A stretch of 64,000 nucleotides of DNA, taken from an uncultured Gammaproteobacteria bacterium. GTDB lineage: Bacteria; Patescibacteriota; Microgenomatia; CAYSOG01. A program made the translations under genes and the position numbers. The notes beneath the pieces are model-generated. The model was not told where the DNA came from. It ran no database searches and was given only the letters and a program-made list of their open reading frames with translations. The DNA lies in the NCBI GenBank assembly GCA_964432675.1, contig CAYSOG010000006.1, positions 1,824-65,823 of the forward strand, in the 5' to 3' direction. Of this stretch, positions 3,409-64,000 are shown piece after piece; the stretch's first letter is position 1, and the number at the start of each line of letters is the position of its first letter.

Positions 3409-4287
3409 CTATTTTATGAAATATTGATAAAAGGTATTTGACAGCTGGGCTTCAGTTTCTATACCGTCTTGCGGCGTCGACAAACCCTTGGCCATCAAAA
3501 CAATAACGTAGACTTGTTTGCCCGCGGTAACAATACCGATATCATGGCGGACATCATCTAAATCACCCGTCTTGTCAGCAACAGTTACACTGGCTGGTAA
3601 GTATTTTGCTATACGGTCGGCAATTTGCTGTTTGGCCATTAGTGTATAAATATTGTCACGAGCGGATTTTGACATACCTTGGCCATTGTAAATTTTTTCA
3701 AGCAGCACCATCATATCTTTTGGTGTGGTTGTAAAGTGATTATCAAAATAGGTGTTTTGCATGCCTAAACTATTTGTGAATTGTTGGATTTTCGGCCAGC
3801 CTAAAATGGCGGCTAAATTTTCGGCTAAATCTTCCTCGCTTCTTGTAATAATCGGTTCCCTACCGGTTGCGACCGTAAATCCAGCGCCTAAATCTGCATT
3901 AGGATCAAGGTTGCCCTTTTCCTCCTCAACATACGATGTCAAAACCAGCGGCACTTTGTATGTTGACGCCATTAAAAACGGTTCGTTTTCATTTTGGAAA
4001 AAAGTTTCGCCAGTGGTTAAATTTTTGACAGCAATGCCAAATGTCCCAGGTGTCGTGCTTTCCAGCGTTGTAACTTTCTCTTTCAGTGGTAAATCAGCCG
4101 GAAGTGCAATCGGCGTACCCGGTGGCCGACTAGTAGCCGAATCTTGGGCCTGGACATTACCTGTATCTGGCCGGTGTTGTGGTAGTTGCTTTGTGTCATT
4201 CTTAAACCAAACGAAGCCTGCTATGACAGAACTAAGTAATATACACAAAATGAATAACCGGTAGTAGGCGTTATTTTTTCGACGCAT
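3409..4287 (-). CDS. Class A beta-lactamase-like serine hydrolase, membrane-anchored
   Basis: N-terminal TM helix, 'STYK' (SxxK) motif and C-terminal 'KTGD' motif, as in class A beta-lactamases and penicillin-binding serine hydrolases. Confidence 0.65.
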   Translation of the reverse strand: MRRKNNAYYRLFILCILLSSVIAGFVWFKNDTKQLPQHRPDTGNVQAQDSATSRPPGTPIALPADLPLKEKVTTLESTTPGTFGIAVKNLTTGETFFQNENEPFLMASTYKVPLVLTSYVEEEKGNLDPNADLGAGFTVATGREPIITRSEEDLAENLAAILGWPKIQQFTNSLGMQNTYFDNHFTTTPKDMMVLLEKIYNGQGMSKSARDNIYTLMAKQQIADRIAKYLPASVTVADKTGDLDDVRHDIGIVTAGKQVYVIVLMAKGLSTPQDGIETEAQLSNTFYQYFIK

Positions 4288-7138: not shown

Positions 7139-7167
7139 TTGACACGTTTAGAACAAACAAATACAAT
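7139..7167 (+). promoter_or_regulatory. Sigma70-like promoter TTGACA-17-TACAAT for the large secreted protein; near-leaderless
   Basis: TTGACA at 7139-7144, 17-nt spacer, TACAAT at 7162-7167. The ATG is at 7176. Confidence 0.5.
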
Positions 7168-7175
7168 CCATATCA

Positions 7176-10100
7176 ATGTTTTTTAGGCTTGGGTTACCTG
7201 CCGGCCTATTATTTTTTACCTTTTTTATCCTGCTCCCCCACCCCGTGTTCGCTGCGTCGTGGCAAAAAGTTAGCAATTTGCCAACCACAAATATTAGTAG
7301 TTTTGCTTCAATTGACGCTGGTATATTTGCAGCTGATAATCAGACGACTTTTTCAAGACAATCTGAAAACGGTATTTACCAAATTTTAGTGGACGGATCA
7401 GCTGCGACAAAGACTTTCTCTAATTCACAGTTTTGGGTTAATAGTTTAATTTCGGTTGGTAATACCATGTATGCCACAACTTTTCAGGACACTACTTTCG
7501 GCCAAGGCGGCGTTTATAAATCTGTTGATAATGGCGCATCGTGGCAATTAACTAGTCTAACCCCAACGCATACAAAGTATTTAGCTGGAAATTCAGCCGT
7601 ACTTTTGGCCGCAAGTAATACAACAATGTGGCGTTCGGCTGATAGCGGTGCTACTTGGACACCAGTTATGCAGTTTGGTTCATTCGAACAGTTTTTAGCA
7701 ATTTCCATTGCTGGCAACACTGCTTTCGCATCCAGTACAAATGCTTTATATCGTTCGACAGATGGTGGCACAAACTGGCAAGCTATCACTATTCCTCAAC
7801 TGACCAAACAGTTCTTAGGCCAAAACGGTAATCTTGTATTAGCTGGCGGAAATGCCCAAGGCTTAATGCGGTCAACTGACAGTGGCAATTCATGGCAAAT
7901 TATTAATGATGCTTCGTATGGCGGTGAACAACCAGTTGGACCATTTACTTTTGCACCAAATGGAAATATTTATGCCGGTGGCTATACCATGTCATCTGGC
8001 GGCTACAATACCGGAACGATGTTTTCTTCTTCAGACAATGGCGCAACATGGACAAAAATTGATGCCGGTATTACCCATAGTCTTTCAAGCACACAAGCTG
8101 TCCAGGCAGTTTTAGCAACTTCTAACAAAGTATTCATATCACTTTTGCAAGGTGACGTATTTGTTTTGGACACAACGCCGCCACTTGCTCCAGCTAAAAC
8201 ACCACTCATTTTAATTCCGGGCATTGGTGGCAGCGAATTTACCGCTTCTTCTGCCATTACTCATGCTGCAACCGATGGCCATGGTGGCACTTTTTCACAC
8301 AACTATGATGCTGGAGAATTACTGTGGGTTAATATCGCGCAAGCCTTACTACCTGGTACCGATGATTACTTTGATGTTTTACGCATGAATACAGATGGTA
8401 CTACACCCTTACACAATGAAGTTACTTTAGATGGCAGTGTTGTACCACAGGCATATGGCAATTTTGTGAAGTTCTTTACGGATAATGGTTATGTGTTGAA
8501 CAAGGATTTGTTCCTTTATCCATATGATTGGCGTAAAGATGTTACAATATCAGCTTTTTTACTGGATGGTCGCGTTAACCAAGTATTACAACAAACTGGT
8601 ACCACAAAGGTCGATATTGTCGCCCACAGTTTAGGTGGTCTTATTGCAAGAAAGTATACTGCCGATGCCAGTAATGCTACAAAGGTCCGAAAGCAAATAA
8701 CACTCGGTGCACCATTTTTAGGATCTGTTAACTCTCTTAAAGCTCTACGTTATGGAACCTGTGTTGATTACATACTCTTAAATAATTGCATGGGTATTAA
8801 TAAGGAAGAAATTAAGGATGTTGTCCAAAACATGACGAGCAACTTTGAACTTTTACCAGACCAAAATTACTATACTATTTACGATAATTCAGACAGGAAT
8901 CACCCCTATCCATTCCGTGATGATCGAGATATTGATAATAATGGCGTAACCGGTGCTTTAAATTATGATCAAACGAAAACCCTATTAACTAATCTGCAGC
9001 ATAATACTTCGTTATTTAATCCATCGGAGCAATTTCACACAGTCGACAATACCCTAGCCCAAACAAATGGCGTCGAAATATATACTATCGCTGGCTCTGG
9101 TAAATGTACTCTTGGCAATGTTAGAGAGTTTTCGAAAATAAACTTCTTAGGGCAAGCAGTAAATAAAACCGAAGAAAGTACTATTAATGGCGACGGGACG
9201 GTGCCACTTTTTAGTGCCTCGTTAACTGATACCACAAAAAACTTTAACCTTGCAGGTCAAACTAAGGTCTATTATACGAATCAAGAACACAGCGCGTTAA
9301 CAAGCAATGGCTCTGCCCTGCAACTTGCGAAAGCGATCCTAAATGGTGACTCTACCCTACCAACTGGAGTTAGTAGTAGTGCTTACAAAGCAAGCTGCAA
9401 GCAAATTAGCGTCTTAAGCCCGGTGACTGTCGATGTTTATGACACAAATGGCAATCATACTGGTCCTACAGCTAATGGTGGTTTTGAAACGAATATTCCA
9501 GGCAGCAGTTATGATGAAATTAACGAAGGCAAAACGGTAGTTTTACCAGAAGATGGCCAGTACACAATAAAGTTAAAGGCTACTGATAACGGCTCGTTCG
9601 ACCTGAAAGTGAAAGATATTACCAATGATGCACCCACGCAAGAATTAGTTTACTCAGATGTACCAATAACATTAAGTTCTGCGGCAACACTTGTTGTTGA
9701 CCAATCCCAGCCGTCTCCACAATTACAACTTGATAGTAATGGTGATGGCACAACTGATCAAAACATATCCCCCACTACCTTAGCCGGTAATACGGCAAAT
9801 GACACGGCTGCTCCAAAAACGTCTATAAATGTATCAGGTACACAAGGATATGGGAATTGGTATAAAAGCAGTGTTACAGTGACATTACAAGCGAATGATG
9901 AAATAGGCGGATCTAGTGTTGCCAAAACAGAATATTCACTTGATGGCGGTAAAACTGTTCAATTATATAACCAGCCATTTGTTATATCTGCGGAAGGGAC
10001 GACAAATCTAAAAGTTCGTTCAATGGATAATGCCGGTAATCAAGAAGTGTTCGTAACGAAAGATATATTAATAGATAAAACGCCACCTGAAGCTATAATC

Positions 10101-44008: not shown

Positions 44009-44764
44009 CTACTTCGCGTTCCACAATGCAAGTTCAAGCGGTGAATTTTCATCACCTGGTTGCGTTTGCCGAAAGCGGAAGTAATTTTTGGTACCAGTTT
44101 TTGGGTTTTCAAGCAAGACCATATTTTGGCCAATCGGTAAAACCCAATCTTCGGTTATCTCGTTCTCACTGCCATACTTTCCCCTATACGTGTTATAGGT
44201 AACAGCCAAAGCAACGCCACTTGAGCCGTCGGACATCTTTTTCTGGCGCGCCGTTATACCGGTTTCTTCCCCAGTTGCGGAAACAACTCTTACGGCGTAT
44301 CCGTTCGTTGTTTTGGCAACATCTGGCGGCTTATTTTGGGCCGCAAAGCTTGTAATCGCTGCCTTATCGTTATTCAGCTGCCACCCTTTTATAGATACCG
44401 AACTTTGGGCGGTTAGCGTATGTTTGCTTTCATAGTCAGCAAGTTTCTTCGGGGTATCATTATCAGATGACAACGCCCAAGCGAATAAACCAATGAATAA
44501 GCTCATGACAAGAATTGCCATAACAGTAATACCGGCATACTTGCCAAACCCTTTCAGCAGTTGTATCCGCTGCTGCTTTTTTTGATCGGCTATTTCTGAC
44601 CTGCCCTGGGCGAACGATTTCTGTTCGGTTGCCAGCCGTAGGATAAAATCGGCTTCAACACCGTACACACCGTGTTCCTGTAATTTTATACTGGTACTCT
44701 CTAAGGCCTCAACTTCTTCTTTCGAAAGGCCACAGTCAGTGACGCTAGCAATGACTTGCTGCAC
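44009..44764 (-). CDS. Single-pass membrane protein, paralog A (251 aa)
   Basis: Cytoplasmic helical N-domain, one TM helix and an extracytoplasmic beta-rich domain. Shares 'GWQLNNDKA...KPPD' and the C-terminal 'SPLELALWNAK' with the next ORF. Confidence 0.55.
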   Translation of the reverse strand: MQQVIASVTDCGLSKEEVEALESTSIKLQEHGVYGVEADFILRLATEQKSFAQGRSEIADQKKQQRIQLLKGFGKYAGITVMAILVMSLFIGLFAWALSSDNDTPKKLADYESKHTLTAQSSVSIKGWQLNNDKAAITSFAAQNKPPDVAKTTNGYAVRVVSATGEETGITARQKKMSDGSSGVALAVTYNTYRGKYGSENEITEDWVLPIGQNMVLLENPKTGTKNYFRFRQTQPGDENSPLELALWNAK

Positions 44765-44860: not shown

Positions 44861-45637
44861 TTACTTCGCGTTCCATAAGGCAATTTCAACAGGTGAATTG
44901 TCGTCACTGTTTGTATTGGTCCGCCGAACGCGCAGATAATTTTTGGTATGCGTGTATGGGTCTTCGACAACAACAGTGTCATGCCCTAATGGCAGCACCC
45001 ATTCTTCCTTTACCAAGGTGAAGGTATCGGTCGACGATGAAGTATATGGCTTTAGGCTTGTGACAACGATTAATTTAACGCCGTTACTGTTATCAGAGCG
45101 AGTGACGGTGTCAAAACGGATAAAGGTCAATGCCCCGGCAACGGTGTGGATATCCTCGTTTGTGCCAACAGTCTTGATCGAATCGGGCGGCTTATTTTCA
45201 GCACGGAATGTGGCAAGATCTGCCTTGTCATTATTAAGCCGCCAACCAGTTAGAGAAATAGTGCTGGTGTTCGTTAAAGTATGGCTTTGTTCGTAGTTGA
45301 GCCTATCATTATAGGTATTTCGGGCTTGCGCATCGGGTGATCCACAGTTACCCCACCAACTGGCCATTCCCCAGATACAAAGCAGGCCAATAACAACTAA
45401 CGGCGTTATCCAAGAAGCTTTTATAATGAGCTTATGGTTTCGTTCCCTTGACTCTTCAGCCCTCACCGACCGGTTTCGGGCATAGGGTTCTTGCTCTATG
45501 GCAAACTTTAAAGCCCAATCAGCTTCAACAGGCCGTACGCCAGCTCTCGCTAATTTCCGGTTTACACTCTTAAAGGCATTGACTTCTTCCGATGTCAAGC
45601 CAAAATCCGGATTAGGATTAGTTGCAAGCCTTGCCAT
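44861..45637 (-). CDS. Single-pass membrane protein, paralog B (258 aa)
   Basis: 'GWRLNNDKA...KPPD' and C-terminal 'SPVEIALWNAK'. Same topology as paralog A. Confidence 0.55.
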   Translation of the reverse strand: MARLATNPNPDFGLTSEEVNAFKSVNRKLARAGVRPVEADWALKFAIEQEPYARNRSVRAEESRERNHKLIIKASWITPLVVIGLLCIWGMASWWGNCGSPDAQARNTYNDRLNYEQSHTLTNTSTISLTGWRLNNDKADLATFRAENKPPDSIKTVGTNEDIHTVAGALTFIRFDTVTRSDNSNGVKLIVVTSLKPYTSSSTDTFTLVKEEWVLPLGHDTVVVEDPYTHTKNYLRVRRTNTNSDDNSPVEIALWNAK

Positions 45638-47661: not shown

Positions 47662-48249
47662 CTAGATCCAGCCCTTTTTGTAGAAATAAAGCCTTGCTAA
47701 AATTTCATATACAATATTCCGCCAGTGGCCTCGAGTTTGCCAGTGCAGTGAGTTGGGATCGTATGGCACGCCAAAAGTATTGGCAGCGAATACTTCGCTA
47801 AATCCAAGCTTTTTCGTGGTCCAGACTGCCCGAACCATTTGGTCTGGATGCGCAACAATCAAGGCAGTATTCCACCCTCGGTAGCGACAAAGGCTTAATG
47901 CACGCTCTCCTATTTCATGGGTATTCGGTTCTTTGCGGGCAAACATCGATCTTCGTACATTTAACGAGACCTGCCGACGCAAGCCATATGGCAGACAATC
48001 AACAAGTTGCTCTTGCAAGATAAAAGGGATATTGTAGCCTTGGTGTAGCTCAACGGCAATTGCGGCCAACCGCTCGTTTGCTGGGCTTGAACCGTCTTTC
48101 CTTAAACCGCTCGCAAAGCCAATGATAACCTTTGCCCCAGCCTGCGTTGCTGTAAGGCTGGGCTTCATATGCCAGGTAAAAATACAGCGCCAGATCTTAA
48201 TTAGGTCCAAACCGGCACCCCTTTGTTGAGGATTTTGTAAACGTGCCAA
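47662..48249 (-). CDS. Hypothetical protein (195 aa; possibly DUF218/YdcF-like)
   Basis: ORF with globular composition. The family assignment is a guess. Confidence 0.4.
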   Translation of the reverse strand: MARLQNPQQRGAGLDLIKIWRCIFTWHMKPSLTATQAGAKVIIGFASGLRKDGSSPANERLAAIAVELHQGYNIPFILQEQLVDCLPYGLRRQVSLNVRRSMFARKEPNTHEIGERALSLCRYRGWNTALIVAHPDQMVRAVWTTKKLGFSEVFAANTFGVPYDPNSLHWQTRGHWRNIVYEILARLYFYKKGWI

Positions 48250-48310
48250 GATACTTGGAAATTGCTTTTCCTTTCAATACCCAAATATCTTTTGGATGGT
48301 GAAAGGAAAA

Positions 48311-48336
48311 GCGGAGGGCCAATTTAGGCCCTCCGC
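48311..48336 (-). terminator. Perfect 10-bp hairpin GCGGAGGGCC/GGCCCTCCGC at the left edge of the high-GC segment
   Basis: Followed on the minus strand by TTTTCCTTTC. Confidence 0.5.
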
Positions 48337-49273: not shown

Positions 49274-50050
49274 CTATCCGCGACCGCCGCGCTGGCGGTT
49301 TCTGTACTCGGCGTCGCGAGCCGATCTCTCGGCTTGCTGCTGGCGCCGCTCCGGTGGCGCACCCCGGTGGTTGCGCGGGTCTGTGGCCCGGCAGTCTCGG
49401 AGATGCGTGGCCAGTAGCGGGAGCAGCCGGCGAATCTCGGCCTGCTTGGGCCTGCTCTTGGTGGCGCCGTCGATTTCCTCCTGGCTAAGCCAGGGAAACT
49501 CCGACTGCTCGATCTTCTCGACATTTCTGAGAAGGGCGAGCGCGCCAATCAGAAGCAGCTGCTGCGGCTTTCGCATGAGCCCCGCCTCCTCGGCGAGGTT
49601 CTCGAAATGCGGGAGATACGTATCCCGCTGGGCCGACATGCAGGCCAAGAAGAGCTGCCAAGCGGCCTCGCGCGCCGCGGCGTAATCCGGTTCGAGGTCG
49701 TCCAGGATCATATCCCGGATCCGCTCCAGTTCCGCCTTGAGTTCGACCCGGCGTGGCTCGGCGATCCCATCCCAGCCGGTAGCAAATTGCGCGGTCTGGA
49801 ACTGCCGCCGGGCGGCCTCGTCGATCGGGATCCGCGGCTGATGCTGCTGGTCGGTGCCGGACTGCTCGTCGGTAGCGCAACCGAGAGACTTGCTGGCCTC
49901 GCGGATGACCCGGTCGATGGTCCCCTCCACGGGGGTCTCGGTGACGGTCTGGTCGGCGGTCTCGACGACGGTCTGGTCGGCGGTCTCGACGACGGGCTTC
50001 TGGTCGGCGGTGGCTTCGGTGCTATCAACGGTCTTGGCGGTCTTGGTCAT
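49274..50050 (-). CDS. High-GC hypothetical protein with tandem 8-aa repeats (start at 'MTKTAK')
   Basis: Protein-like frame among several GC-driven overlapping ORFs. N-terminal VETADQTV repeats and a helical C-terminal domain. Own terminator. Confidence 0.5.
   Translation of the reverse strand: MTKTAKTVDSTEATADQKPVVETADQTVVETADQTVTETPVEGTIDRVIREASKSLGCATDEQSGTDQQHQPRIPIDEAARRQFQTAQFATGWDGIAEPRRVELKAELERIRDMILDDLEPDYAAAREAAWQLFLACMSAQRDTYLPHFENLAEEAGLMRKPQQLLLIGALALLRNVEKIEQSEFPWLSQEEIDGATKSRPKQAEIRRLLPLLATHLRDCRATDPRNHRGAPPERRQQQAERSARDAEYRNRQRGGRG
49946..50014. repeat. Tandem direct repeat, 24-nt unit GGTCTGGTCGGCGGTCTCGACGAC x2 plus a partial third copy
   Basis: Read directly from the sequence. 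Encodes the VETADQTV repeats of the 49274 gene. Confidence 0.8.
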
Positions 50051-50197
50051 CTGGCCTTCTCCTGTACAATGAACCTGGCAACACGTGCTAAACGGTAGCA
50101 CACCGCGCCCAAAATGGGCGAAAGACTCTTGCCACAGTTTCATCCGGAGGCCCACGGGCCCGCCGAAAAAAACTAACAAGCCGATGACTGGGCGCCG

Positions 50198-50425
50198 TCA
50201 AAACGACGGCGCCTCCGACATGAACTCAAGGAACTTGCGGTCCGCTTCGGTAAGGACTGGGTCGACAAAAAGCCGACCATTGTCCTTTCCACAGCGGGGC
50301 AATGTCCCTCGGGTCGCCGGCGCCTCGGCCGCAGAAAGCCCACCTTCGTGGACCTTACCGCAGCTCAGGCAGGTTACGTCGAATTCCGTTGTGTTCGGAA
50401 TCACCGGTCTTGCCGCAACTACCAT
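50198..50425 (-). CDS. Small Cys-containing protein (75 aa), high GC
   Basis: 'CLSCGKVHEGG...PRCGKDNG' putative zinc-ribbon. Confidence 0.4.
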   Translation of the reverse strand: MVVAARPVIPNTTEFDVTCLSCGKVHEGGLSAAEAPATRGTLPRCGKDNGRLFVDPVLTEADRKFLEFMSEAPSF

Positions 50426-50894
50426 GTATTCCTCCTAAAAACTAGCCTCTCCGCTGAGGCTTCCATTACAAGGACTTACCATTCGTAAATCCCGATAATA
50501 GAAACCTCACCGTTTTAGCGTTGCTTAAAGGAAGTATTGTTCAACGATAATAATAGTAATGTGCAAATGCTTTTGGGTTTTTACGCCCTCAAGCGTTTGT
50601 TTGCAATTTGCGGCAAAAATAATTCGCAAATCCAAACAATTGTTGTGAAGTATATCACACTACAGGCCTTTTGTCAAGTATCTATAGGTCATACTATATA
50701 AATGTATAACCCTGCATAGATGCTATACACGCCATGTGTACCAGGATCAATAAAAGACATATGCCCTACTTCGCCGGACTACTTATACCATATGTATATA
50801 TAACTATAAGTTATGTATAGGCATTGCCTAGACACAGATTTCTGCATATTGTCATCCTGGCTTAATTGCATTATTTATGTTAGATAAAGCCAAT

Positions 50895-50931
50895 AAAAAA
50901 GGGCCGCGGTATTCATACCGCGGCCCAAAAA
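50895..50931. terminator. Bidirectional terminator GGGCCGCGGTA-ttca-TACCGCGGCCC flanked by A/T runs, downstream of the helicase
   Basis: Perfect 11-bp stem. A6 upstream and A5 downstream on the plus strand. Confidence 0.7.
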
Positions 50932-50972: not shown

Positions 50973-53939
50973 CTACTTAGCGGAAGGCTGTACCGCTTTT
51001 TGGTACACTTCCCGCAACAGGCCAATCTTCTTTACTTTGTGGCCGCTTTTAAGGCCCTCTTGGTTAACAAATCCCCAATACGTCTTCCCCCTTTCAGGCG
51101 TTGCCACTTCCGAAGCGGTGGCATCGAATTCGAAAAGCATGCCGTATGAAATTTCATCAATCGGCACAACCTTGTCGCCTTCGAACTGGTACTGCCCCGC
51201 TCCCGGCCAATGTTCGGCGTGGAACTGCGCAAGCCATGCGTCGTATTCGGCCTGCTTTTCCGCTTCCTCTTGGGCCAAGAGCTCAGCAAATTCGCGATCG
51301 AACTGCTCCTGTTTCCGTTGCAACAGCGCTTGCTCCAACCGAACCTGTTCGGCTTCGGCAGCAGCTTGCCGCCTTCGCGATAGCTCTTGCGCTTCAGCCT
51401 GCATCCGAGCCAGTTGAGCTTCTCGCTGCGCTTGCAGCGCCACTTCGCGGTTTGCTTCATAGGTTGGCCGGTTAGTGTCGATGAACTCGCTGGCAGCCGA
51501 AAGTCGCATCTCAGCGTCGGCCGGCCACTGCTCATCGAGCACCTTCAGTCGAAGGGCTTCAAGATCTTGGTAAAACGTGTAAGCCCTTTGGTCATCTTCA
51601 GCAAGTCCCCACATCGCCAAATCATTGCGAATTAACCACAGCACACCAGTAATACTATCAATCAAAGCCAGCTGGCTTCGCTGCGCTTCGGTTTGGTAAC
51701 GCCAGCGTTCCGATTCCGGAACTTCATCGCGCGTACACAAAACTTCCTCATATGCCACTTCTTGGCCAAGCACTGTAGTCGTGCGAGATTTGGTCCATTC
51801 TACCCGCATAAAACCGGGGGGTTTTGGATTGCCCTCGCGAACACTGACCATATGCGGGGCAACTTCAAGCAGCCACTCGACCTCGACTTTTTGGCAGCCA
51901 CGGGCAAAATTGCGTTTGCCTTTTGGCGTTGTGACACCTTGAATACCAGCACAGACAATAATCTGCGGTGGCGTATGAAACAACACGCTATCACGCGAAA
52001 TATACAACGCGGTGTCTTCCTCACGCGACAATGACCAAATGCTACGCGGCTTGGCGCCGGCCCAGGTGTAGCTGAACCTGCCATTTGAAACGGCCAAGTT
52101 CTGCATTAAACCAGCTGCCACTGCCTTGCCGATCACCGCAACTTGGCTCTTTTCGGTGTCAGTTAGTTCCCAACGGTCGACTGCCTTTTGGTAGCCTACC
52201 GATGTGACCTCGATCCCCATCAGCATAATAATATCCATAAGTTGCCGACGGATTTTGAGGATTTCATCAAGGCTTCGATGGTTCAAAAAGTGGTCACGTG
52301 CCCAATCATGGTCATAACCCGCGTCTGCGTATTCGTTCATGACGTTTAATACGGTTAGGAAATCGCTGTCATGAACAGACAAGCGTTGCCGCCACATGTC
52401 TGCATCAGCTTCATGGTCACGCGGCCTGGTAAAAAGCCGGTTGACCGAAAGGCTTGCGGCAATGGTGCAGATTTCTGCAATACAGCCATGCTTTTCGGCT
52501 TCCAAGATCATACGGCCGATGGTTGGTTCAACTGGTAGTTTTGCCAATTGCTGGCCGACATCGGTCAACGTATTATCAGCGTCAACCGCCCCAAGTGCCC
52601 GAAGTGTTTCAAGTGCGTTATGGAGCGCTTGCTTTGGCGGCGAGTCGATGAACTCGAACTCCTCGACATCAGTAATGCCAAGGCTCAGCATCTTCAACAC
52701 CACACTCGACAGTTCGCTGCGCACAATCTCGGGTACGGTAAACTCATCTGCATGGTCATACTCGGCCTCTGTAATAAGCCGGTAACAGTTGCCTTCATCG
52801 GTCCGCCCTGCCCGGCCGGCACGTTGGCCCATACCAGACTTCGAATGCAATATGGTCTGCAAGCTGCTAATGCCGCTGTGCGGATCAAACTGCATTTGGC
52901 GGATAAGGCATGAGTCGACCACATCAACCGCAGTTTGCGGTGTGATAGATGTTTCAAGCACGTTGGTGCCGATAATCACCCGACGGCGGTTTGAAGGAAT
53001 AAAGACGCGCTGCTGTTCGTCCGGGCTCATGTCGCCATGAACTGGAATAAGCTCGGCGTCGATATTAAGCCGTTCGAGAAATTCAATTGTCTTATTAATC
53101 CAGGCAAGGCCCGGCATAAAGACCATGATATCCCGTTTGGCTCTTTGGCTGGCAATAATTTGACTTACTTTGTATGCCGCCAGTGCTTCAACCGGAACCG
53201 GTTTGTCCGGATCGATTAGCCCCAGGAACTGGTCTCGAGCCTTATGATGTTCGCCCGGCTGAAGGTAATGGACCGTGACGGGAAACTGTTTCCCAACAAC
53301 CTGGATGATTGGCGCATTGTCGAAAAACGCCGAGAACTTTTCGGCATTAATGGTGGCCGACATGATAATAAGTTTCAAGTCAGGCCGCAACCGTAATGCT
53401 CGCTTCGCCAGGCCAATGGCAAAATCAGTATCGACGTTGCGTTCGTGCGCTTCGTCGAACCCGATAATGCCGTATTGATAGAACCCTTGGTCATGAATGG
53501 CTTCCTGAAGCAGGATACCATCGGTCATAAACTTAATTTTCGTGCCAACGCTTGTTTCATCGTCGAAGCGAATTTGGTAGCCGACTTCGTTGCCAATCCT
53601 ACTACCTAGCTGCCTGGCGACAAATTGGGCAACGGTAATTGCCGCAATGCGCCTGGGCTGGGTGATGCCAATCCTGCCAGTTTGAAGCATGTCTGCGTTG
53701 TACAGGAATTGTGGAACCTGGGTTGTCTTACCGCTGCCAGTTTCGGCAACCAAGATGGTTACCTGGTTCTGCCGAATGGCCTCGACAATTTCGTCTTTGT
53801 GCTGGCCAACGGGCAATTGAAGGTTCACGTTTTCGTTCCTCACGAGCAGGGGCCCTGGCGTTGCCAGGAATTGCCCACCCTGCTCCGACCACTTTTTCAG
53901 GTCTTGTCCGAAGTCTTTCCGTAAAGGGCAACGGACCAT
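50973..53939 (-). CDS. DEAH-box ATP-dependent helicase, HrpA/HrpB-like, with C-terminal OB/coiled-coil extension
   Basis: 'VAETGSGKTTQVPQF' (motif I), 'GFDEAHER' (DEAH) and helicase-associated HA2/OB-like region. Long Gln/Ala/Glu-rich coiled coil near the C-terminus. Confidence 0.85.
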   Translation of the reverse strand: MVRCPLRKDFGQDLKKWSEQGGQFLATPGPLLVRNENVNLQLPVGQHKDEIVEAIRQNQVTILVAETGSGKTTQVPQFLYNADMLQTGRIGITQPRRIAAITVAQFVARQLGSRIGNEVGYQIRFDDETSVGTKIKFMTDGILLQEAIHDQGFYQYGIIGFDEAHERNVDTDFAIGLAKRALRLRPDLKLIIMSATINAEKFSAFFDNAPIIQVVGKQFPVTVHYLQPGEHHKARDQFLGLIDPDKPVPVEALAAYKVSQIIASQRAKRDIMVFMPGLAWINKTIEFLERLNIDAELIPVHGDMSPDEQQRVFIPSNRRRVIIGTNVLETSITPQTAVDVVDSCLIRQMQFDPHSGISSLQTILHSKSGMGQRAGRAGRTDEGNCYRLITEAEYDHADEFTVPEIVRSELSSVVLKMLSLGITDVEEFEFIDSPPKQALHNALETLRALGAVDADNTLTDVGQQLAKLPVEPTIGRMILEAEKHGCIAEICTIAASLSVNRLFTRPRDHEADADMWRQRLSVHDSDFLTVLNVMNEYADAGYDHDWARDHFLNHRSLDEILKIRRQLMDIIMLMGIEVTSVGYQKAVDRWELTDTEKSQVAVIGKAVAAGLMQNLAVSNGRFSYTWAGAKPRSIWSLSREEDTALYISRDSVLFHTPPQIIVCAGIQGVTTPKGKRNFARGCQKVEVEWLLEVAPHMVSVREGNPKPPGFMRVEWTKSRTTTVLGQEVAYEEVLCTRDEVPESERWRYQTEAQRSQLALIDSITGVLWLIRNDLAMWGLAEDDQRAYTFYQDLEALRLKVLDEQWPADAEMRLSAASEFIDTNRPTYEANREVALQAQREAQLARMQAEAQELSRRRQAAAEAEQVRLEQALLQRKQEQFDREFAELLAQEEAEKQAEYDAWLAQFHAEHWPGAGQYQFEGDKVVPIDEISYGMLFEFDATASEVATPERGKTYWGFVNQEGLKSGHKVKKIGLLREVYQKAVQPSAK

Positions 53940-54106
53940 TTGGTTGAGCAGGGCTGCTCGATTACAGAACCGATCGGGCGCTAATTTTTAATAGCCCATC
54001 AGCTTTTTTCCTTTCTTTTTATTTTCATTGCTTGTTAAGGTACATTTGGAAGCTAAACTTCCCTAAAACTCACTTTCGCCTTTATATAGAGCGACAATGA
54101 GCTTGA

Positions 54107-54138
54107 GGAAAGCCACGTCTGTGTAAACCAGACGTGGC
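54107..54138 (-). terminator. Hairpin GCCACGTCTG-tgtaaac-CAGACGTGGC downstream of the 54152 gene
   Basis: Perfect 10-bp stem. Separates the helicase from the ORFan array. Confidence 0.5.
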
Positions 54139-54151
54139 GAAAAATGTCTAT

Positions 54152-54751
54152 CTACTGATTGATGTTAACACCCAGTTGGGCTTCTGCTGGCACGCCTTGT
54201 GCCAAGAGCGCCTGAAGGTATTCCGAACTCGGCAGTTTGTTGATATATTCGGCGAACTTAGCCGGGTACTCCCGACGCGCCCGTTCATACAGGATTTCAA
54301 TGACCCGAGAATCGACAAGCCCATTAAGGTAGTTCCGGCCTGGAGTAAATGGTGCCTGCCGATGGTTTCGCTTGACGAGCTGTCGAGCACCCTGGTCAAA
54401 GTGCTTCACAACATACGCCCGCATGATAGCAACGTATTGGCCGCCTTCCATGTTTGGCAACGGAACCAAAAGGTACCGGTCTGCAATGCGGAGTGCATGG
54501 GCATAGTCCGCATCAAGTCGCAACCTATTGATTAGCTGCTTGCGTTCAACCAACGACTCAGCGAACGGTCGCCGTAAAGCTATGACTGGACCATAGTTCA
54601 GCCGCCTGTTCAGCCACAATAGCTGCCGCCCGAACCAGCGATTTACCCATCGAAACTTCCACCGAAGGGCGAATGAGGCAATGATAAGGAAAAAGGCGAA
54701 AACCGCCATTACGGTCAACACCTGCCCAAAGACTGTTACTACTTCTTCCAT
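54152..54751 (-). CDS. Hypothetical membrane-anchored protein (199 aa)
   Basis: N-terminal TM helix. Arg-rich. Confidence 0.45.
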   Translation of the reverse strand: MEEVVTVFGQVLTVMAVFAFFLIIASFALRWKFRWVNRWFGRQLLWLNRRLNYGPVIALRRPFAESLVERKQLINRLRLDADYAHALRIADRYLLVPLPNMEGGQYVAIMRAYVVKHFDQGARQLVKRNHRQAPFTPGRNYLNGLVDSRVIEILYERARREYPAKFAEYINKLPSSEYLQALLAQGVPAEAQLGVNINQ

Positions 54752-54781
54752 CTGCTCTCCCCTTTCTCTTGCTTGGTAAGG

Positions 54782-55561
54782 TTACGCCGGCACCGGGTCT
54801 GCGAGCCGAACAAGGCGAAAATTAAACCCTTTGCCGTAGGGCGTCGCATGCAAAACTATTCGGGAACGAGCTGGTATGGAACTATGCGGGTCGATCGACA
54901 CCCAAAATGCGGCGGTAAACAATCTAGAATGTTCCTTGAAATAGAGTAGTCGATTATGAATGTAAGACGCTACCTCCGGATCACCTTCGATATTATCTCT
55001 CTCAATAACAACAAAGGCTTGGCCGTTACCACCTGGATAGTAGTAATAGTTATTATCAACAGAAACTGTCACTTCACGAACGCACTTGCGTTCGATCAAT
55101 TCCACCGCCCGACCGTGCCCGATGGACATATATTGCAGTTCACCGTGTAGCATTACCGGTTCTATAAAGTCTTCAGGGCACCTGCCCTCACTAACGCGCA
55201 TAATGCATCCACTTTCCACAATGAAGTCGCAGTATTGCGCGATATAGGAAATCGGGAGATGGTCGTTTGCTATTTGGCATGTTAGGCCCATTTTCCTTGC
55301 TCGAACCTCACCTACTAATTCCATGCAGCCTGAATTTTCAGAGAGGACGACAAAGAGCTCATCGTCATAAAGCTCATGGGATATGTACTGAAGCTGCTCT
55401 CCGGATAAATCACCAGCTCCGAGAAATTCACCCTTCTCATTGAACCATCGTCCCCGCGAAATCCAGGGGTCAGAGCGTTCAACTTGTCCGCCTCGTAAGC
55501 CGAACAAGCCTGCTGCTCCTATATTCAGACCGCTATACATACCTTTGACAAGACGGGACAT
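54782..55561 (-). CDS. Hypothetical protein (about 260 aa from 'MSRLVKG'; ORF extends to 55720)
   Basis: AGGAGG RBS 6 nt upstream of the ATG at 55559-55561. Contains 'NYYYYPGGNG'. Confidence 0.45.
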   Translation of the reverse strand: MSRLVKGMYSGLNIGAAGLFGLRGGQVERSDPWISRGRWFNEKGEFLGAGDLSGEQLQYISHELYDDELFVVLSENSGCMELVGEVRARKMGLTCQIANDHLPISYIAQYCDFIVESGCIMRVSEGRCPEDFIEPVMLHGELQYMSIGHGRAVELIERKCVREVTVSVDNNYYYYPGGNGQAFVVIERDNIEGDPEVASYIHNRLLYFKEHSRLFTAAFWVSIDPHSSIPARSRIVLHATPYGKGFNFRLVRLADPVPA

Positions 55562-55756
55562 GATCTGCCTCCTCTTTTCGCTTTGCTGCTTTCCATCAAT
55601 TTTGTAGATTTTTAATGTACCATTTGGACACGCTTCGTGCCCAAACTGAAGGCTATTCCCTTCCGCAAACGTTTTTATACGCTTAAGGCATAAAAATGCT
55701 TGAGGAAAGGCCCCGTCCATCAGCCAGTTGGTGAATGAACGGGGATGAAAATTACT

Positions 55757-56274: not shown

Positions 56275-56418
56275 TTTTCCTCCTTTTTGTTCCGCTTCGT
56301 TTTTCTGTAGGTATTTGAATGTGCAATTTGAAGCATACCGCTTCCTGAAACCCTCTAGGCTGCTGGCCTAAAAAGTTTGAGGAATGGGCGGGACGGCTTT
56401 TTAAGCCGTCCCGCAAAT

Positions 56419-57512: not shown

Positions 57513-57706
57513 GACTGCCTCCGTTTGCGCTTCCTGAGCTTTTAACCTGTAATGGTAAGGTGCGATATGATGAAGTCAAAATGGAAAACGATTGCTCGTT
57601 CACTTTCATTTTAACTTCTTCCTGCAATTCTCAAATTTATTTTTGGGAATTATAGGAATGAGGCAGCGCCGAAACGGCGCTGCCCAAATGTACTCAAAAG
57701 AAAAGG

Positions 57707-58665: not shown

Positions 58666-59061
58666 CTACCAGTCTTTAAAGGCAGCGGGAACTTCCGGCC
58701 CCCGGGGCTTGCTCGGGTCGAAGAAAACGACTCGCGTTGGCAGGTAGCGAACAACCTCAGCGTTTGGTAAGTCTTTTACCTGCGCGTACGCTTCGATCCA
58801 CCATCCAGCCTCTGTCTGCTCGCGATAAACGAATTCAACTTTTTGCACCCATTCATGAGCCTCTTGTGGACCCATACTCCGCAAACCTCGAACAACCATC
58901 ATGCGGATTTCAGACCGGCACCACCTGCCATTCGTCAGGGCATAGTTCGCCTCGACAGTTAACTTCGGCAAGTCCCGGTCGTTATAAGCAGCAAACCCAA
59001 AGCCATCAGTTTTCCAGTCATCCGCTTCTTTCTTCCCAAGCCACCTGAGGAAACCAAACAT
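58666..59061 (-). CDS. Hypothetical protein (131 aa), first gene of the minus array
   Basis: AAAAGGAGA RBS. Trp-rich. Confidence 0.45.
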   Translation of the reverse strand: MFGFLRWLGKKEADDWKTDGFGFAAYNDRDLPKLTVEANYALTNGRWCRSEIRMMVVRGLRSMGPQEAHEWVQKVEFVYREQTEAGWWIEAYAQVKDLPNAEVVRYLPTRVVFFDPSKPRGPEVPAAFKDW

Positions 59062-60316
59062 GGCATGTGTCTCCTTTTCTTTTTCGTTAATGTGCGATCC
59101 TTCATTGCCTATTTTCTCAAAGGCAATTATGAGAAGGAAAATTAGCAGACAATGGCTTATCTGCTTACTTTCTCTCTCAATAGCCGACTTCTATAACTTG
59201 CCGTCGGATATGCTAAGCCAAAGAAAAACCAGCTCTTTTTGCGGCTGTCCAAATACAAAATTAGCTAATTTGGGCAGGTGCATTTGAAACATGAGCATAT
59301 AAGCTGGCTGTTTCTTCAGTCGATAAAAATGAAGTGCTATATACCTAAGTATATGTTACAAACGTTTTCCGTTTTCGTGGAAGTATAACATACTATAAGC
59401 TTAAAGTCAAATCTGGGAGGCGCACTACATATTTACTAAACCTGGGTGTTACCACGCGATGTCTATGCAGTAGGTAGACATGATAAGGCAAAATGAGCCA
59501 CAGGGTCTGCTTTCTTATACTTAAACTCATAGTTTAAAGTTGCTATATATAATAGTGTAGCTATTGCAGCTAATTGCCTGTATATCCTTTGCTAGAATTG
59601 TTCATCTTGACAGACTTATAGTTATATGATACACTGCGCCCTACATCGTTTGGCGAAGCAATCACCAGACGATAAGCAATCGCACATTTTAAGAAACCAG
59701 AAAAGCTTAACATACCAGCTTTCAAGTCAAAACCTTTATTTCCTGCCATAGGGGTTCGTAGTACTTCCAACGTACTCCCCTTTTGACAGACAGCTGGTTT
59801 TTTGTTTTTCTTTGTCATTCTGGCAGACGAAGTCGAGACCAGGACCTTTTTGAAACCAAAGGAAACGTTTAGGTCTATGGTCGGAATGACAATATATTGT
59901 GGTGGTAAGCGAGCGCACAATCTGCTCTGTATCGTATCCGATACACCAAAAGGTTTTAAACCTTGTACTGGATACACCAATACGACATGTATTGTGGGCT
60001 CACTTTCCATCCCAAACTTTCTTAGCGGCGCTAAGTGCCGCAACAAAGTTACAAGATGGATCAAAAACCTTACAACGAACTTTCACAATCTACAGTTGAA
60101 AACCTTTAAAGATGCTTTTATTGGCGTCGAAAAGCGGCTTAAAACATTGTCATTCTGAACGGATACGAAGTGTAGTGAAGAATCTACCACGGTCGGATTA
60201 GCAAGCCAGGTAGAAGATCCCTCTCTAATCACTCGGGATGACAACCTGTTTGAGTTTCTTTTCGGCGTCAATAAGCAGCAACGGCGTTTAAAAAGCGTCA
60301 AGATGGAAGGAAAATC
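59062..60316. promoter_or_regulatory. 1.25-kb non-coding divergent control region with direct repeats, palindromes and stacked hairpins
   Basis: No protein-like ORF. TTGACA-17-TACACT at 59607-59635. Repeats TTGTCATTCTG...ACGAAGT at 59812 and 60147. The 16-mer TTCACAATCTACAGTT at 60082. Palindrome CTTAGCGGCGCTAAG at 60021-60035. Hairpins at 59929-59994. Confidence 0.5.
60082..60097 (+). repeat. 16-mer TTCACAATCTACAGTT, copy 1
   Basis: Exact repeat of the 16-mer at 61642-61657. Confidence 0.8.
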
Positions 60317-60652: not shown

Positions 60653-60846
60653 GCTCGACGTGAAGTATCCACCTCAGTAAAGAAAGGTTTTCGACGTAGA
60701 TTTTTTGAGTCCCCGTTCAGTTGCATGGACGGGGCTCTTCCTTAAGTCCTTAAACAATTTTGAGGATTGAAGGAAGAACTGATTAAAATAGTTCTTCAAG
60801 AACAGAAATCGCACTTTTAGAGCTGAAAACCAAAAAGGAGAGGTGG

Positions 60847-61510: not shown

Positions 61511-61641
61511 GGAGGTTTTCAGCGTAGATATTGGGCGGCAGCCAACAAGCTGTCGCCCTCTTCCAAAAATCTTTTTTTGGCACATTGCCAAAAGAGGCAT
61601 TTTGGAAGAGCGAATAAGCTTTTCAAGAAACACTTTGTTCA

Positions 61642-61657
61642 TTCACAATCTACAGTT
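61642..61657 (+). repeat. 16-mer TTCACAATCTACAGTT, copy 2
   Basis: Exact copy of the 16-mer. A partial copy, AATCTACAGGTT, is near 63850. Confidence 0.8.
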
Positions 61658-62892: not shown

Positions 62893-62936
62893 GTCCGCCC
62901 TTTACGTCTACCAGACGAAGGGCGGACCTTTCCTTA
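62893..62936 (+). terminator. Terminator GTCCGCCCTT...AAGGGCGGAC followed by CTTTCCTT
   Basis: 10-bp stem with an internal second stem. Followed by the further hairpins 62965-62985 and 63007-63028 (GGGAGGGAC-tttt-GTCCCTCCC). Confidence 0.55.
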
Positions 62937-63505
62937 ATGATTGAAGGCAACTTCAGCCATTTAGGAAGGGTGGTAACCACCTTTCATTAACAAATTTATA
63001 TAGGGCGGGAGGGACTTTTGTCCCTCCCCTACCCTGTTCTTTGCACATTAATACAGGTTTTAGTAATAGCCACCCGTTTCACCGCTTTATTGTGGAGGAG
63101 TTTTGCCACGCGAAAAATGGCAGGATTAATTTCTTCAGAATTAAGCGGTGAACAGGTAGCCGCTCGGCACACGAAGGAGTTGTGTTGGGAAGTAGCCTTC
63201 GCACGTCACAGGTCAATTGTCGGCAGGGACAGGCAAGGATCGCTTGCCACATCCACCAGTGCACTGGCTGCGGCAGGAGCATCAGTAACCCGCATGGCAC
63301 CTGCTCAGAGTCGTGCAAACGGCTCTGCGATAGGTGTAAGCACCCCGGTTTTCCTGCGGCAACTGTTTCTGCTACACAGCCAACTGATATAAGACAATCC
63401 AACCCGAGGTCGACTGGAAGGCCTGCTTCAATATTTACGCGCCTCTGATTGCTATCCGCCTGGGTATAATCTCCTACCAAGTCATCTTATTAGAAAGGAG
63501 GAAAA

Positions 63506-63697
63506 GTGGAAGAAGAGGTTTTTGAGGTTAAGTGCCTGAATTGCGGCCGTGTCGCCGGTGAAGTAACGGGCTCAGCGGCCAAGCGCATGGACAGGCCTCC
63601 CAAGTGTAGCCACTGCAACGGCAGGACACACTTGCAACCGCTTGCCAATGACGAACTGGCACTTGCCAGACATCGGCTCAAAGCCAGTATTGCTTAA
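63506..63697 (+). CDS. Zinc-ribbon mini-protein (63 aa, GTG start)
   Basis: 'CLNCGR...CSHCNG' CxxC-x-CxxC. AGGAGG RBS 8 nt upstream. TATAAT at 63461-63466. Confidence 0.5.
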   Translation: MEEEVFEVKCLNCGRVAGEVTGSAAKRMDRPPKCSHCNGRTHLQPLANDELALARHRLKASIA

Positions 63698-64000
63698 ACC
63701 AAATTTGTTCTCCGCCCTTTCCATTGTGGATTGGGCGGAGACACCTACTTTAAGAGGTAAAGTGTCGATATAACTTTTCTTGTGTCCACATTTTCCTTCT
63801 TAAAAGCCATGGATGGCAAGTAGAGTTGGAACAAAAATTTCGTACATTAATAATCTACAGGTTAAATAAAAACTGAAAGCTCCCCTAGTGGAGACAATTT
63901 ATCCTTCGAGCGATTAGGGAGAAGTTCGTCAATAGAATAGGTAGTCCCAGTAAAGTTCTCGCTTTGTGAGTACACGTCGCTCGAACAATAATATATCCAT

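Follow-up and report, generated by a model that had tools for sequence, protein, structure and literature searches.

An orphan-gene island with repeated intergenic modules

The window analysed here, a stretch of 64,000 nt from contig CAYSOG010000006.1 (positions 1,824 to 65,823), comes from a lineage of the Patescibacteria, or candidate phyla radiation (CPR), and contains an island of orphan genes in which a structured module recurs between the genes. Housekeeping genes, including DnaB, HisRS and TldD/PmbA, fill 1-47 kb at a GC content of ~43%. The island spans ~16 kb from ~48 kb, reaches a GC content of ~50%, and its genes run leftward from ~59.06 kb and rightward from ~60.3 kb. Searches of Pfam, PHROGs and PADLOC returned no family-level match for its ~30 short open reading frames (ORFs), a helicase excepted. 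This protein (50973-53939, minus strand, 988 amino acids) is of the DEAH/Prp22/HrpA type (DHX8-like) with the domains DEAD, Helicase_C, HA2 and OB_NTP_bind.

A first-pass annotation of this DNA pointed to a 12-mer, GCTTGAGGAAAG on the plus strand and CTTTCCTCAAGC on the minus strand, that is shared by two intergenic gaps. Both exact copies are present and the window contains no other. The first, at 54101-54112, lies in the 212-bp gap (53940-54151) upstream of the helicase, and the second, at 55698-55709, in the 195-bp gap (55562-55756) upstream of a start codon at 55561, which is also the NCBI gene call and opens a product of 259 amino acids. The two orphan ORFs adjoining the motif, of 259 and 199 amino acids, have zero homologues among 5.8 billion proteins. 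A degenerate third copy, CATTCCTCAAAC, had been placed at 56365-56376 and is located at 56375-56386.

The annotation also held that recurrence of a 12-mer within 1.6 kb is very unlikely, which is wrong. Block-wise shuffles in which local base composition is preserved yield, per window, 7.9 +/- 3.2 exact 12-mer pairs no more than 1.7 kb apart; with about eight such pairs expected by chance, the recurrence alone is no evidence. The real window has 47 of these pairs, merging to 20 distinct repeats. Moreover, when up to two mismatches are allowed, the motif matches the window 8 times versus 5.1 expected and hence is not over-represented.

Folding of the intergenic regions and subsequent mapping of the parts yielded eight modules, M1-M8, which separate groups of one to four genes, all lie in gene orientation and share an identical order of parts. 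Each starts with T, a GC-rich hairpin of 9-15 bp located 4-58 nt past the upstream stop codon. Motif A, with the consensus C[TA][TC]TTCCT[CT]AA, begins where T ends, with a gap of -1 to +1 nt, in all eight modules; only TTCC is invariant, and the two exact 12-mers are the most similar pair of this eight-copy family. The complement of the motif recurs 25-45 nt downstream of it. The two strands belong to P2, an imperfect stem of 15-23 bp (42-55 nt) that is found in all eight modules and is interrupted by 1x1 or 2x2 mismatches. Its 5' strand is motif A and its 3' strand ends with ..TT.AGGAAG, and the interiors are unrelated in sequence and length between copies. P3, a small hairpin, re-uses the GGAAG of P2 in its 5' arm (GGAAG..CTTCC, GAAGC..GCTTC etc.). 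Motif B follows, with a GCACATT core and TACAG 2-11 nt later, 23-86 nt ahead of the next start codon, and then a ribosome-binding site (RBS). The modules are listed below; z compares the fold with dinucleotide shuffles.

54026-54138, minus strand: M1, between the 199-amino-acid ORF and the helicase, z = -5.6; T 54112-54138; motif A 54101-54112 (copy 1, CTTTCCTCAAGC), 5' strand of the P2 basal helix, overlapping the last base of T (gap -1) and paired with GTTTTAGGGAAG at 54058-54069; P2 54058-54112 (22 bp); P3 54048-54062; weak motif B 54026-54047.
55601-55744, minus strand: M2, z = -7.3; T 55711-55744; motif A 55698-55709 (copy 2, CTTTCCTCAAGC), 5' strand of the P2 basal helix, 1 nt past T, partner GTTTGCGGAAGG; P2 55658-55710 (21 bp); P3 55648-55663; extra hairpin 55622-55646; motif B 55601-55625.
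56304-56414, minus strand: M3, z = -7.1; T 56388-56414; motif A 56375-56386 (CATTCCTCAAAC, the degenerate third copy); P2 56341-56386 (18 bp, three U.G pairs); P3 56330-56344; motif B 56304-56329.
60711-60823, plus strand: M4, in the plus-strand operon, also inverted repeat I16; T 60711-60734, near-identical to the T of M2; motif A 60736-60747 (TCTTCCTTAAGT); P2 60735-60777; P3 60773-60797; motif B-like 60806-60823.
61533-61656, plus strand: M5, also inverted repeat I1, z = -8.4; T 61533-61558; motif A 61559-61570 (TCTTCCAAAAAT); P2 61558-61610 (23 bp); P3 61605-61624; motif B 61633-61656.
57546-57685, minus strand: M6; T 57661-57685; motif A 57649-57660 (CATTCCTATAAT); P2 57618-57660; P3 57572-57621; motif B 57546-57568.
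62893-63057, plus strand: M7; T 62893-62927; motif A 62928-62939 (CTTTCCTTAATG); P2 62928-62969; P3 62965-62985; extra hairpin 63007-63028; motif B 63038-63057.
48234-48336, minus strand: M8, at the left edge of the island, also inverted repeat I14 in a repeat scan; T 48311-48336; motif A 48299-48310 (TTTTCCTTTCAC); P2 48265-48311; P3 48257-48271; motif B-like 48234-48251.

A degenerate partial module is also seen in the leader of the minus-strand operon (59085-59165, minus strand). Its parts are a weak hairpin (59144-59165, tail AATTTTCCTTCTCA) and, ~24 nt ahead of the start codon at 59061, a motif B core, ATCGCACATTAACG, at 59085-59098.

Folding, covariation and specificity of the modules

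On the sense strand, all eight modules fold far more stably than their shuffles (z = -4.7 to -8.4). For P2, we aligned the eight copies without gaps over 12 basal positions per arm, anchored on TTCC/GGAA (alignment A2). Paired cells amount to 86.5%, compared with 72.5% in shuffles (0/500), and 8 of the 12 pairs are compensatory with changes on both sides, which again occurs in none of 500 shuffles. The covariation score is 0.42 versus 0.17 for shuffled alignments, and pairing falls to 44-64% once the partner is slid by 1-3 columns. Furthermore, the T, P2 and P3 stems together have 28 G.U pairs and 6 A.C oppositions, the form that a G.U pair of the opposite strand would take, and the folding energies add up to -435 kcal/mol on the sense strand versus -398 on the antisense strand. 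The covarying partner strand and the tolerance of G.U pairs suggest a transcribed RNA helix rather than a site in duplex DNA. On balance we consider it probable that the module acts as a structured intercistronic RNA element of the sense strand rather than as a promoter or operator.

P2 (-12 to -28 kcal/mol) is far more stable than P3 (-2 to -17 kcal/mol), and the two are mutually exclusive because the 5' arm of P3 re-uses the GGAAG of P2. Removal of the motif A side in M2-M5 raises the predicted probability of P3 from 0.00-0.07 to 0.56-0.99. Such three-way pairing, in which GGAAG meets either motif A or CTTCC, would account for the invariance of TTCC and GGAA and for the identical 12-mer in two copies.

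The architecture is specific to the island. A strict scan (T stem no shorter than 9 bp, a tail containing TTCC, and a GGAA partner flanked by 10 or more of 12 possible pairs) found five matches in the 16-kb island and one in 493 kb of unrelated bacterial control DNA, an enrichment of more than 100-fold over the control. The 47 kb of host DNA gave no match and has no module copies. An unbiased comparison of k-mers between the island and 5.7 kb of host intergenic DNA ranks TTTCCT and GCACAT(T) at the top; TTTCCT is the most enriched hexamer, with 7 of 14 island intergenic regions versus one host occurrence. Hence the 12-mer is non-random by its context, that is, by its position next to a hairpin, its location on the coding strand, and the enrichment of both the architecture and the k-mers.

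Is the likeness between modules a relic of old spacer duplications, or do generic hairpins carry a compositional TTCC/GGAA that resembles anti-Shine-Dalgarno (anti-SD) and SD sequences, in either case with no dedicated function? The chance level of the bare 12-mer recurrence would fit, as would the confinement of the module to one contig and the near-identical T of M2 and M4, which suggests copying. However, the flanking ORFs are mutually unrelated, so that gene duplication is no explanation for the similarity of the modules; the island ORFs are not paralogous to one another apart from one pair of small zinc-ribbon proteins, and joint duplication of gene and spacer was rejected on this ground. 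The P2 interiors have fully diverged and nevertheless remain paired with compensatory changes, the part order and the 0-1-nt junction are kept in 8/8, and the enrichment of the architecture over control DNA is likewise at odds with a relic. We regard an element devoid of dedicated function as very improbable.

Scans for relatives covered proteins, DNA patterns and RNA families. Protein scans of viral collections gave no credible relative, their sole match being weak (37 residues, 41% identity). The DNA pattern scans did not exceed chance level, with 54 matches in genome contigs of unrelated phyla versus ~46 estimated by chance, 0 matches in viral contigs and 10 in metagenomes, mostly in high-GC, apparently coding DNA. 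A contig with two pattern matches (L007, Acidobacteria bacterium contig CAJCHM010000050.1) was rejected as a relative, as its tandem palindrome is of another kind. The repeat, which is unannotated and located at 3865-4081, is a tandem duplicate with a unit of ~165 nt and contains the perfect palindrome CCTTTCCTCAAACAGGGAC...GGCCCTGTTTGAGGGAAGG, the ends of which resemble those of P2. This likeness is probably coincidental since the search pattern enforced partial self-complementarity. Rfam 15 reports only tRNA-Leu above the gathering threshold, and a permissive scan of 47-64 kb gave only sub-threshold matches to generic hairpins (best 30.6 bits versus a cutoff of 80). The only other assembly with the locus is a Logan contig from SRR9179560; it is 100% identical and thus offers no population variation to compare. 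By Rfam and by the comparisons with known elements below, the module belongs to no described family, and it is so far confined to one orphan-gene island.

Transcription signals around the modules

The island has four near-consensus sigma-70 promoters (TTGACA/TTGACT/TTGACC-17-TGnTATACT/TATAAT/TACACT) with an extended -10 element (TGn), and intrinsic terminators with T-runs. Host genes use like signals, for example TTGACA-17-TACAAT at 7139-7167, just ahead of the gene at 7176. The signals in and next to the island are as follows.

59382-59410, minus strand: sigma-70 promoter TTGACT-17-TATACT with TG, likely start of the minus-strand operon 59061-50973, which contains M6, M3, M2 and M1.
59607-59635, plus strand: sigma-70 promoter TTGACA-17-TACACT with TG, likely start of the plus-strand operon with M4, M5 and M7.
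50677-50649 and 49110-49082, minus strand: near-consensus sigma-70 promoters.
50901-50926, minus strand: canonical intrinsic terminator (GC stem of 11 bp, then TTTTTT) behind the helicase gene, where the minus-strand operon probably ends.
47248-47216, minus strand: terminator of the T-run type (TTTTTT/TTTTTTT).
49223-49194, minus strand: terminator with the tail TTTTCTATGG.

Two of the promoters (50647-50677 and 59380-59410, repeat family D15) share 74% identity across 31 nt. Transcripts from the divergent pair at 59.4/59.6 kb would begin with leaders of ~320 nt and ~680 nt, in which no convincing ORF is seen and which may hold regulatory RNAs.

The modules are bracketed by these promoters (59410-, 59607+, 49110-) and by T-run terminators (50926-, 47248-). 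What had been taken for two transcription units, each headed by a 12-mer, are more likely sub-clusters within one operon, which would be bounded by the promoter at 59410-59382 and the terminator at 50926-50901. The modules would be transcribed within polycistronic RNAs, with T being read through.

The first-pass annotation interpreted the 12-mer as an element-specific promoter or operator and noted a TATA(T/A)AAA element downstream of both copies. The elements are indeed present on the minus strand, TATATAAA 12 nt past the motif in the first gap and TATAAAAA 18 nt past it in the second, but they belong to the interior of P2: in M1 the element is the apical loop, and in M2 it makes up the 3' arm of the apical helix. 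A promoter composed of motif A and TATA was rejected because the spacing differs between M1 (12 nt) and M2 (18 nt) and TATA is absent from six of the eight copies. No register at the motif has more than 3/6 matches to TTGACA, and a promoter scan of 47-64 kb lists none there. Furthermore, the distance from motif to start codon varies from 49 to 177 nt, whereas that from motif to upstream hairpin stays within -1 to +1 nt in all eight modules. The motif is thus locked to the upstream hairpin and not to the downstream gene, which disfavours a promoter. While the repeat was correctly observed, its explanation was mistaken: a non-random, island-specific, cis-acting signal common to several gene groups stands, and a promoter or operator role is unsupported.

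As an operator, the 12-mer family would be bound as duplex DNA by a regulator of the island, in the manner of an elongation block at stoperators. Mycobacteriophage stoperators exist in many asymmetric, element-specific intergenic copies with one orientation relative to transcription and a well-conserved 13-bp sequence (PMC6550527). The eight copies of motif A resemble them in that they are asymmetric, intergenic, oriented with transcription in 8/8 and specific to the island. Stoperators, however, have a known cognate repressor, while no repressor is detectable here: Pfam, PHROG and PADLOC show no DNA-binding domain, including helix-turn-helix (HTH), and no sigma factor or activator in the ~30 island ORFs, although a novel fold would escape these scans. 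Moreover, the 4 nt that are invariant in motif A are too little for a sequence-specific operator. The complement recurs with compensatory changes, which an asymmetric operator does not need, and the excess of G.U pairs points to RNA. A duplex operator therefore appears very unlikely to us.

A different division of labour would make T a weak or factor-dependent (NusA/NusG-type) terminator and motif B an internal promoter of the island that uses another sigma factor or an activator, with P2 and P3 as insulating or leader structures. T is reminiscent of intrinsic terminators, since in 8/8 it is a GC-rich hairpin of 9-15 bp past a stop codon with a pyrimidine-rich tail, and the T hairpins of M4 and M8 (2/8) pass a simple terminator scan. 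In contrast to intrinsic terminators, the U-tract is absent or interrupted in six of the eight: their tails, of the kind TTTCCTC, CATTCCT or CTCTTCC, have only 2-4 consecutive U and are interrupted by CC, whereas bona fide terminators of the window have T6-7. With its tail broken by CC and no run of 6-7 T, T should terminate poorly.

Motif B is enriched in the island, with GCACATT in 6 of 14 intergenic regions versus one occurrence in host intergenic DNA, and lies 23-59 nt ahead of most start codons, a normal distance for a 5' untranslated region. Four copies have a fixed spacing of 10 nt, and the exact 16-mer TTCACAATCTACAGTT, which is longer than the 12-mer, recurs 1.56 kb apart at 60082-60097 and 61642-61657 on the plus strand, the latter in M5. 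Two further copies are found outside the modules.

60076-60096, plus strand: motif B (CGAACTTTCACAATCTACAGT) with a degenerate A/P2-like stem upstream (~59975-60060); repeat family D2.
63838-63861, plus strand: motif B (TTTCGTACATTAATAATCTACAGG), preceded by a hairpin (63709-63741) and by a degenerate P2-like stem; repeat families D2 and D14.

On the other hand, motif B was rejected as a sigma-70 promoter because no -35 hexamer is found at 16-18 nt, TACAGN does not have the conserved final T, and the spacing from GCAC to TACAG ranges from 2 to 11 nt. A sigma-54 promoter was rejected as well, since the TGGCAC-like block of motif B is not accompanied by a GC at the -12 position. A pairing of terminator and promoter would require a sigma factor or activator, none of which is detected in the island, and leaves the covariation of P2 and the sense-strand G.U bias unexplained. 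We consider it unlikely.

A candidate processing element and its relation to known systems

Taken as an RNA, the module may be an intercistronic processing or stability element that punctuates long operons, the favoured reading, to which we assign a probability of roughly 45%. Terminal hairpins are classical protective structures at the 3' and 5' ends of RNA. RNA polymerase would read through T, and P2, which amounts to about two helical turns of double-stranded RNA, would be cut by an endonuclease of the RNase III type or be bound by a protein. The upstream fragment would keep T as a protective 3' hairpin, and the freed GGAAG arm would refold to P3 and thereby shield the downstream mRNA at its new 5' end. 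The outcome would be separately stable sub-operon mRNAs of one to four genes each. This specific sequence of cutting and refolding is doubtful in comparison with the general role.

Several points weigh against such an element. Read-through of T, cleavage of P2, refolding to P3 and stabilisation are all steps that we infer, and the model assigns no role to motif B. The window contains no rnc gene, and RNase III has no strict sequence signature. The energy advantage of the sense strand is uneven: it holds for M1, M2, M4 and M5, the strands are equal in M3, M7 and M8, and the sense strand is worse in M6. In M1 and M6, mutual exclusion of P2 and P3 is not predicted. The G.U count was taken from minimum-free-energy folds, which score G.U as a pair and thereby favour such counts. 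The pairing partners in A2 were chosen by hand, and the eight copies possibly share ancestry and hence are not independent. Finally, the protein and DNA pattern scans gave no relatives outside the contig, so that conservation across lineages lends no support.

Among known systems, the module would probably work most like the RNase III signals of phage T7 and the intercistronic stabiliser and processing elements of cellular operons. In T7, the upstream product of RNase III cleavage keeps a 3' hairpin. The early polycistronic mRNA of the phage is punctuated by five of these signals, and an idealised RNase III substrate has 22 bp, with cellular ones generally at most 20 bp (PMC3867540). Like the T7 signals, which are related imperfect intercistronic stem-loops of ~20 bp in one long transcript, the P2 stems (15-23 bp) are imperfect helices between cistrons; they covary and lie within units bounded by promoter and terminator. 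They differ in that there is no sequence similarity, that the modules add hairpin T and a competing P3 which shares an arm with P2, and that cleavage is only proposed here. Unlike the T7 case, the host is a Patescibacterium, and PHROG-type scans of the locus show no phage signature.

Short structures within operons also yield separately stable mono- or oligocistronic mRNAs at the plastid intercistronic expression element (IEE), Rhodobacter puf, the E. coli pap/daa hairpins and repetitive extragenic palindromic (REP) elements (PMC2230500). These elements are not known to have a three-part design of the kind of T, P2 and P3, in which two hairpins share a GGAAG arm. Furthermore, repeats of the REP type or of the type of miniature inverted-repeat transposable elements (MITEs) conserve the whole sequence including the interior, whereas the modules conserve helix ends only.

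A partial parallel exists with STAB-SD of B. thuringiensis cry3A, a purine block that resembles an SD, lies well ahead of the true RBS and marks the 5' end of a processed, stabilised mRNA (PMC12970973). In M1-M3, the AGGAAG of the P2 3' arm and P3 5' arm lies roughly 50-105 nt ahead of the start codons. STAB-SD, however, is a single-stranded site for 30S binding (GAAAGGAGG), while the GGAAG of the module is always within a helix. Three further candidates were rejected. A switch that sequesters the SD is not supported, as the predicted mean unpaired probability of the SD is the same in full-length and 5'-truncated RNAs in 6/6 modules. A leader peptide after the SD-like AGGAAG lacks a consistent start codon downstream. 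A boxB-boxA arrangement of the nut/rrn kind was discarded because motif A, as C[UA][UC]UUCCU[CU]AA, fails to align with CUCUUUAA beyond the pyrimidine run; boxA was represented by the E. coli consensus (GCUCUUUAACAA-like). Only M4 (GCTCTTCCTTAAG) resembles boxA.

P2 could alternatively be a recombination site or cassette boundary that folds as a single strand, like the attC site of integrons, and the island an array of acquired orphan cassettes. The short, mutually unrelated ORFs with their missing homologues would fit, as would the separating stems with conserved ends and variable, self-complementary interiors and the GC content of ~50% compared with 43% in the host. The hallmarks of integrons are not seen, however: RYYYAAC and GTTRRRY core sites are absent from both strands of all eight P2 stems, the island as a whole has no complementary R''/R' pair, and the window contains no tyrosine recombinase or integrase. 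The modules part groups of one to four genes and not single cassettes, the genes diverge in two directions from a promoter region, and P2, at 42-55 nt, is at or under the size range of attC. Whereas attC folds on the bottom strand, the G.U bias is found on the coding (top) strand. An attC-like site thus seems most improbable.

The helicase offers another connection, as it lies downstream of motif A copy 1 and is the last gene of the operon that holds four modules. A three-way RNA switch might be remodelled or cleaved with the help of this DEAH/Prp22-like enzyme, or else the P2 stems might be cassette boundaries of a non-integron kind; we judge this pair of ideas improbable. Processing of the E. 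coli daa fimbrial mRNA requires the DEAH helicase HrpA (PMC8325345, citing Koo et al. 2004). Homologues that are 40-52% identical are found in other Patescibacteria, amid ordinary host genes and with no modules nearby, and this weakens a link between helicase and module that is otherwise suggestive. The closest named relatives (~41-49% identity) come from metagenome-assembled genomes of Patescibacteria/Parcubacteria. If the switch did depend on the helicase, a Patescibacterial orphan-gene operon would carry its own cis sites together with its own RNA remodeller in trans.

Directly behind the Patescibacterial homologues come matches to spliceosomal helicases of fungi and other eukaryotes, with ~37-39% identity. 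The lineage of the enzyme is eukaryote-like and appears common in CPR genomes. At its C-terminus, ~290 extra residues are uncovered by most homologues.

Patescibacteria represent a large share of bacterial diversity, and genetic tools for CPR are just emerging. To our knowledge, almost nothing is known about gene-expression signals in this group. The island is a compact natural data set in this respect, with sigma-70 promoters, T-run terminators and eight covarying structured modules between them. If the module is a processing or stability signal, it would show how reduced genomes set gene stoichiometry within long operons and might serve as a portable part for gene expression in CPR. For genome scanning, the lesson is that a short exact intergenic repeat can be one strand of an RNA helix and not a protein-binding box; here, the fixed distance to an adjoining hairpin and the covarying partner strand told the two apart.

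Further observations concern the genes around the modules. The zinc-ribbon pair (CxxC...CxxC) shares 33% identity over 46 amino acids (E = 1e-5). Each protein is encoded by the first or last gene of its unit, and one has a weak PHROG match to an HNH endonuclease zinc finger. GC content within the island peaks (~55%) at 49.2-50.4 kb, the segment around a GC-rich orphan ORF of 301 amino acids that contains a 24-nt tandem repeat. Just left of the island, the host part has two tandem paralogues with 39% identity (E = 8e-54) and no Pfam domain. These features are located as follows.

50198-50425, minus strand: zinc-ribbon protein, 75 amino acids.
63506-63697, plus strand: zinc-ribbon protein, 63 amino acids.
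49274-50179, minus strand: GC-rich orphan ORF, 301 amino acids.
49930-50011: tandem repeat inside this ORF, 24 nt, 3.3 copies, 89% identity (CGGCGGTCTCGACGACGGTCTGGT).
44009-44764 and 44861-45637, minus strand: host tandem paralogues.

The 12-14-mers repeated between the two host paralogues are among the chance-like near repeats counted in the window.

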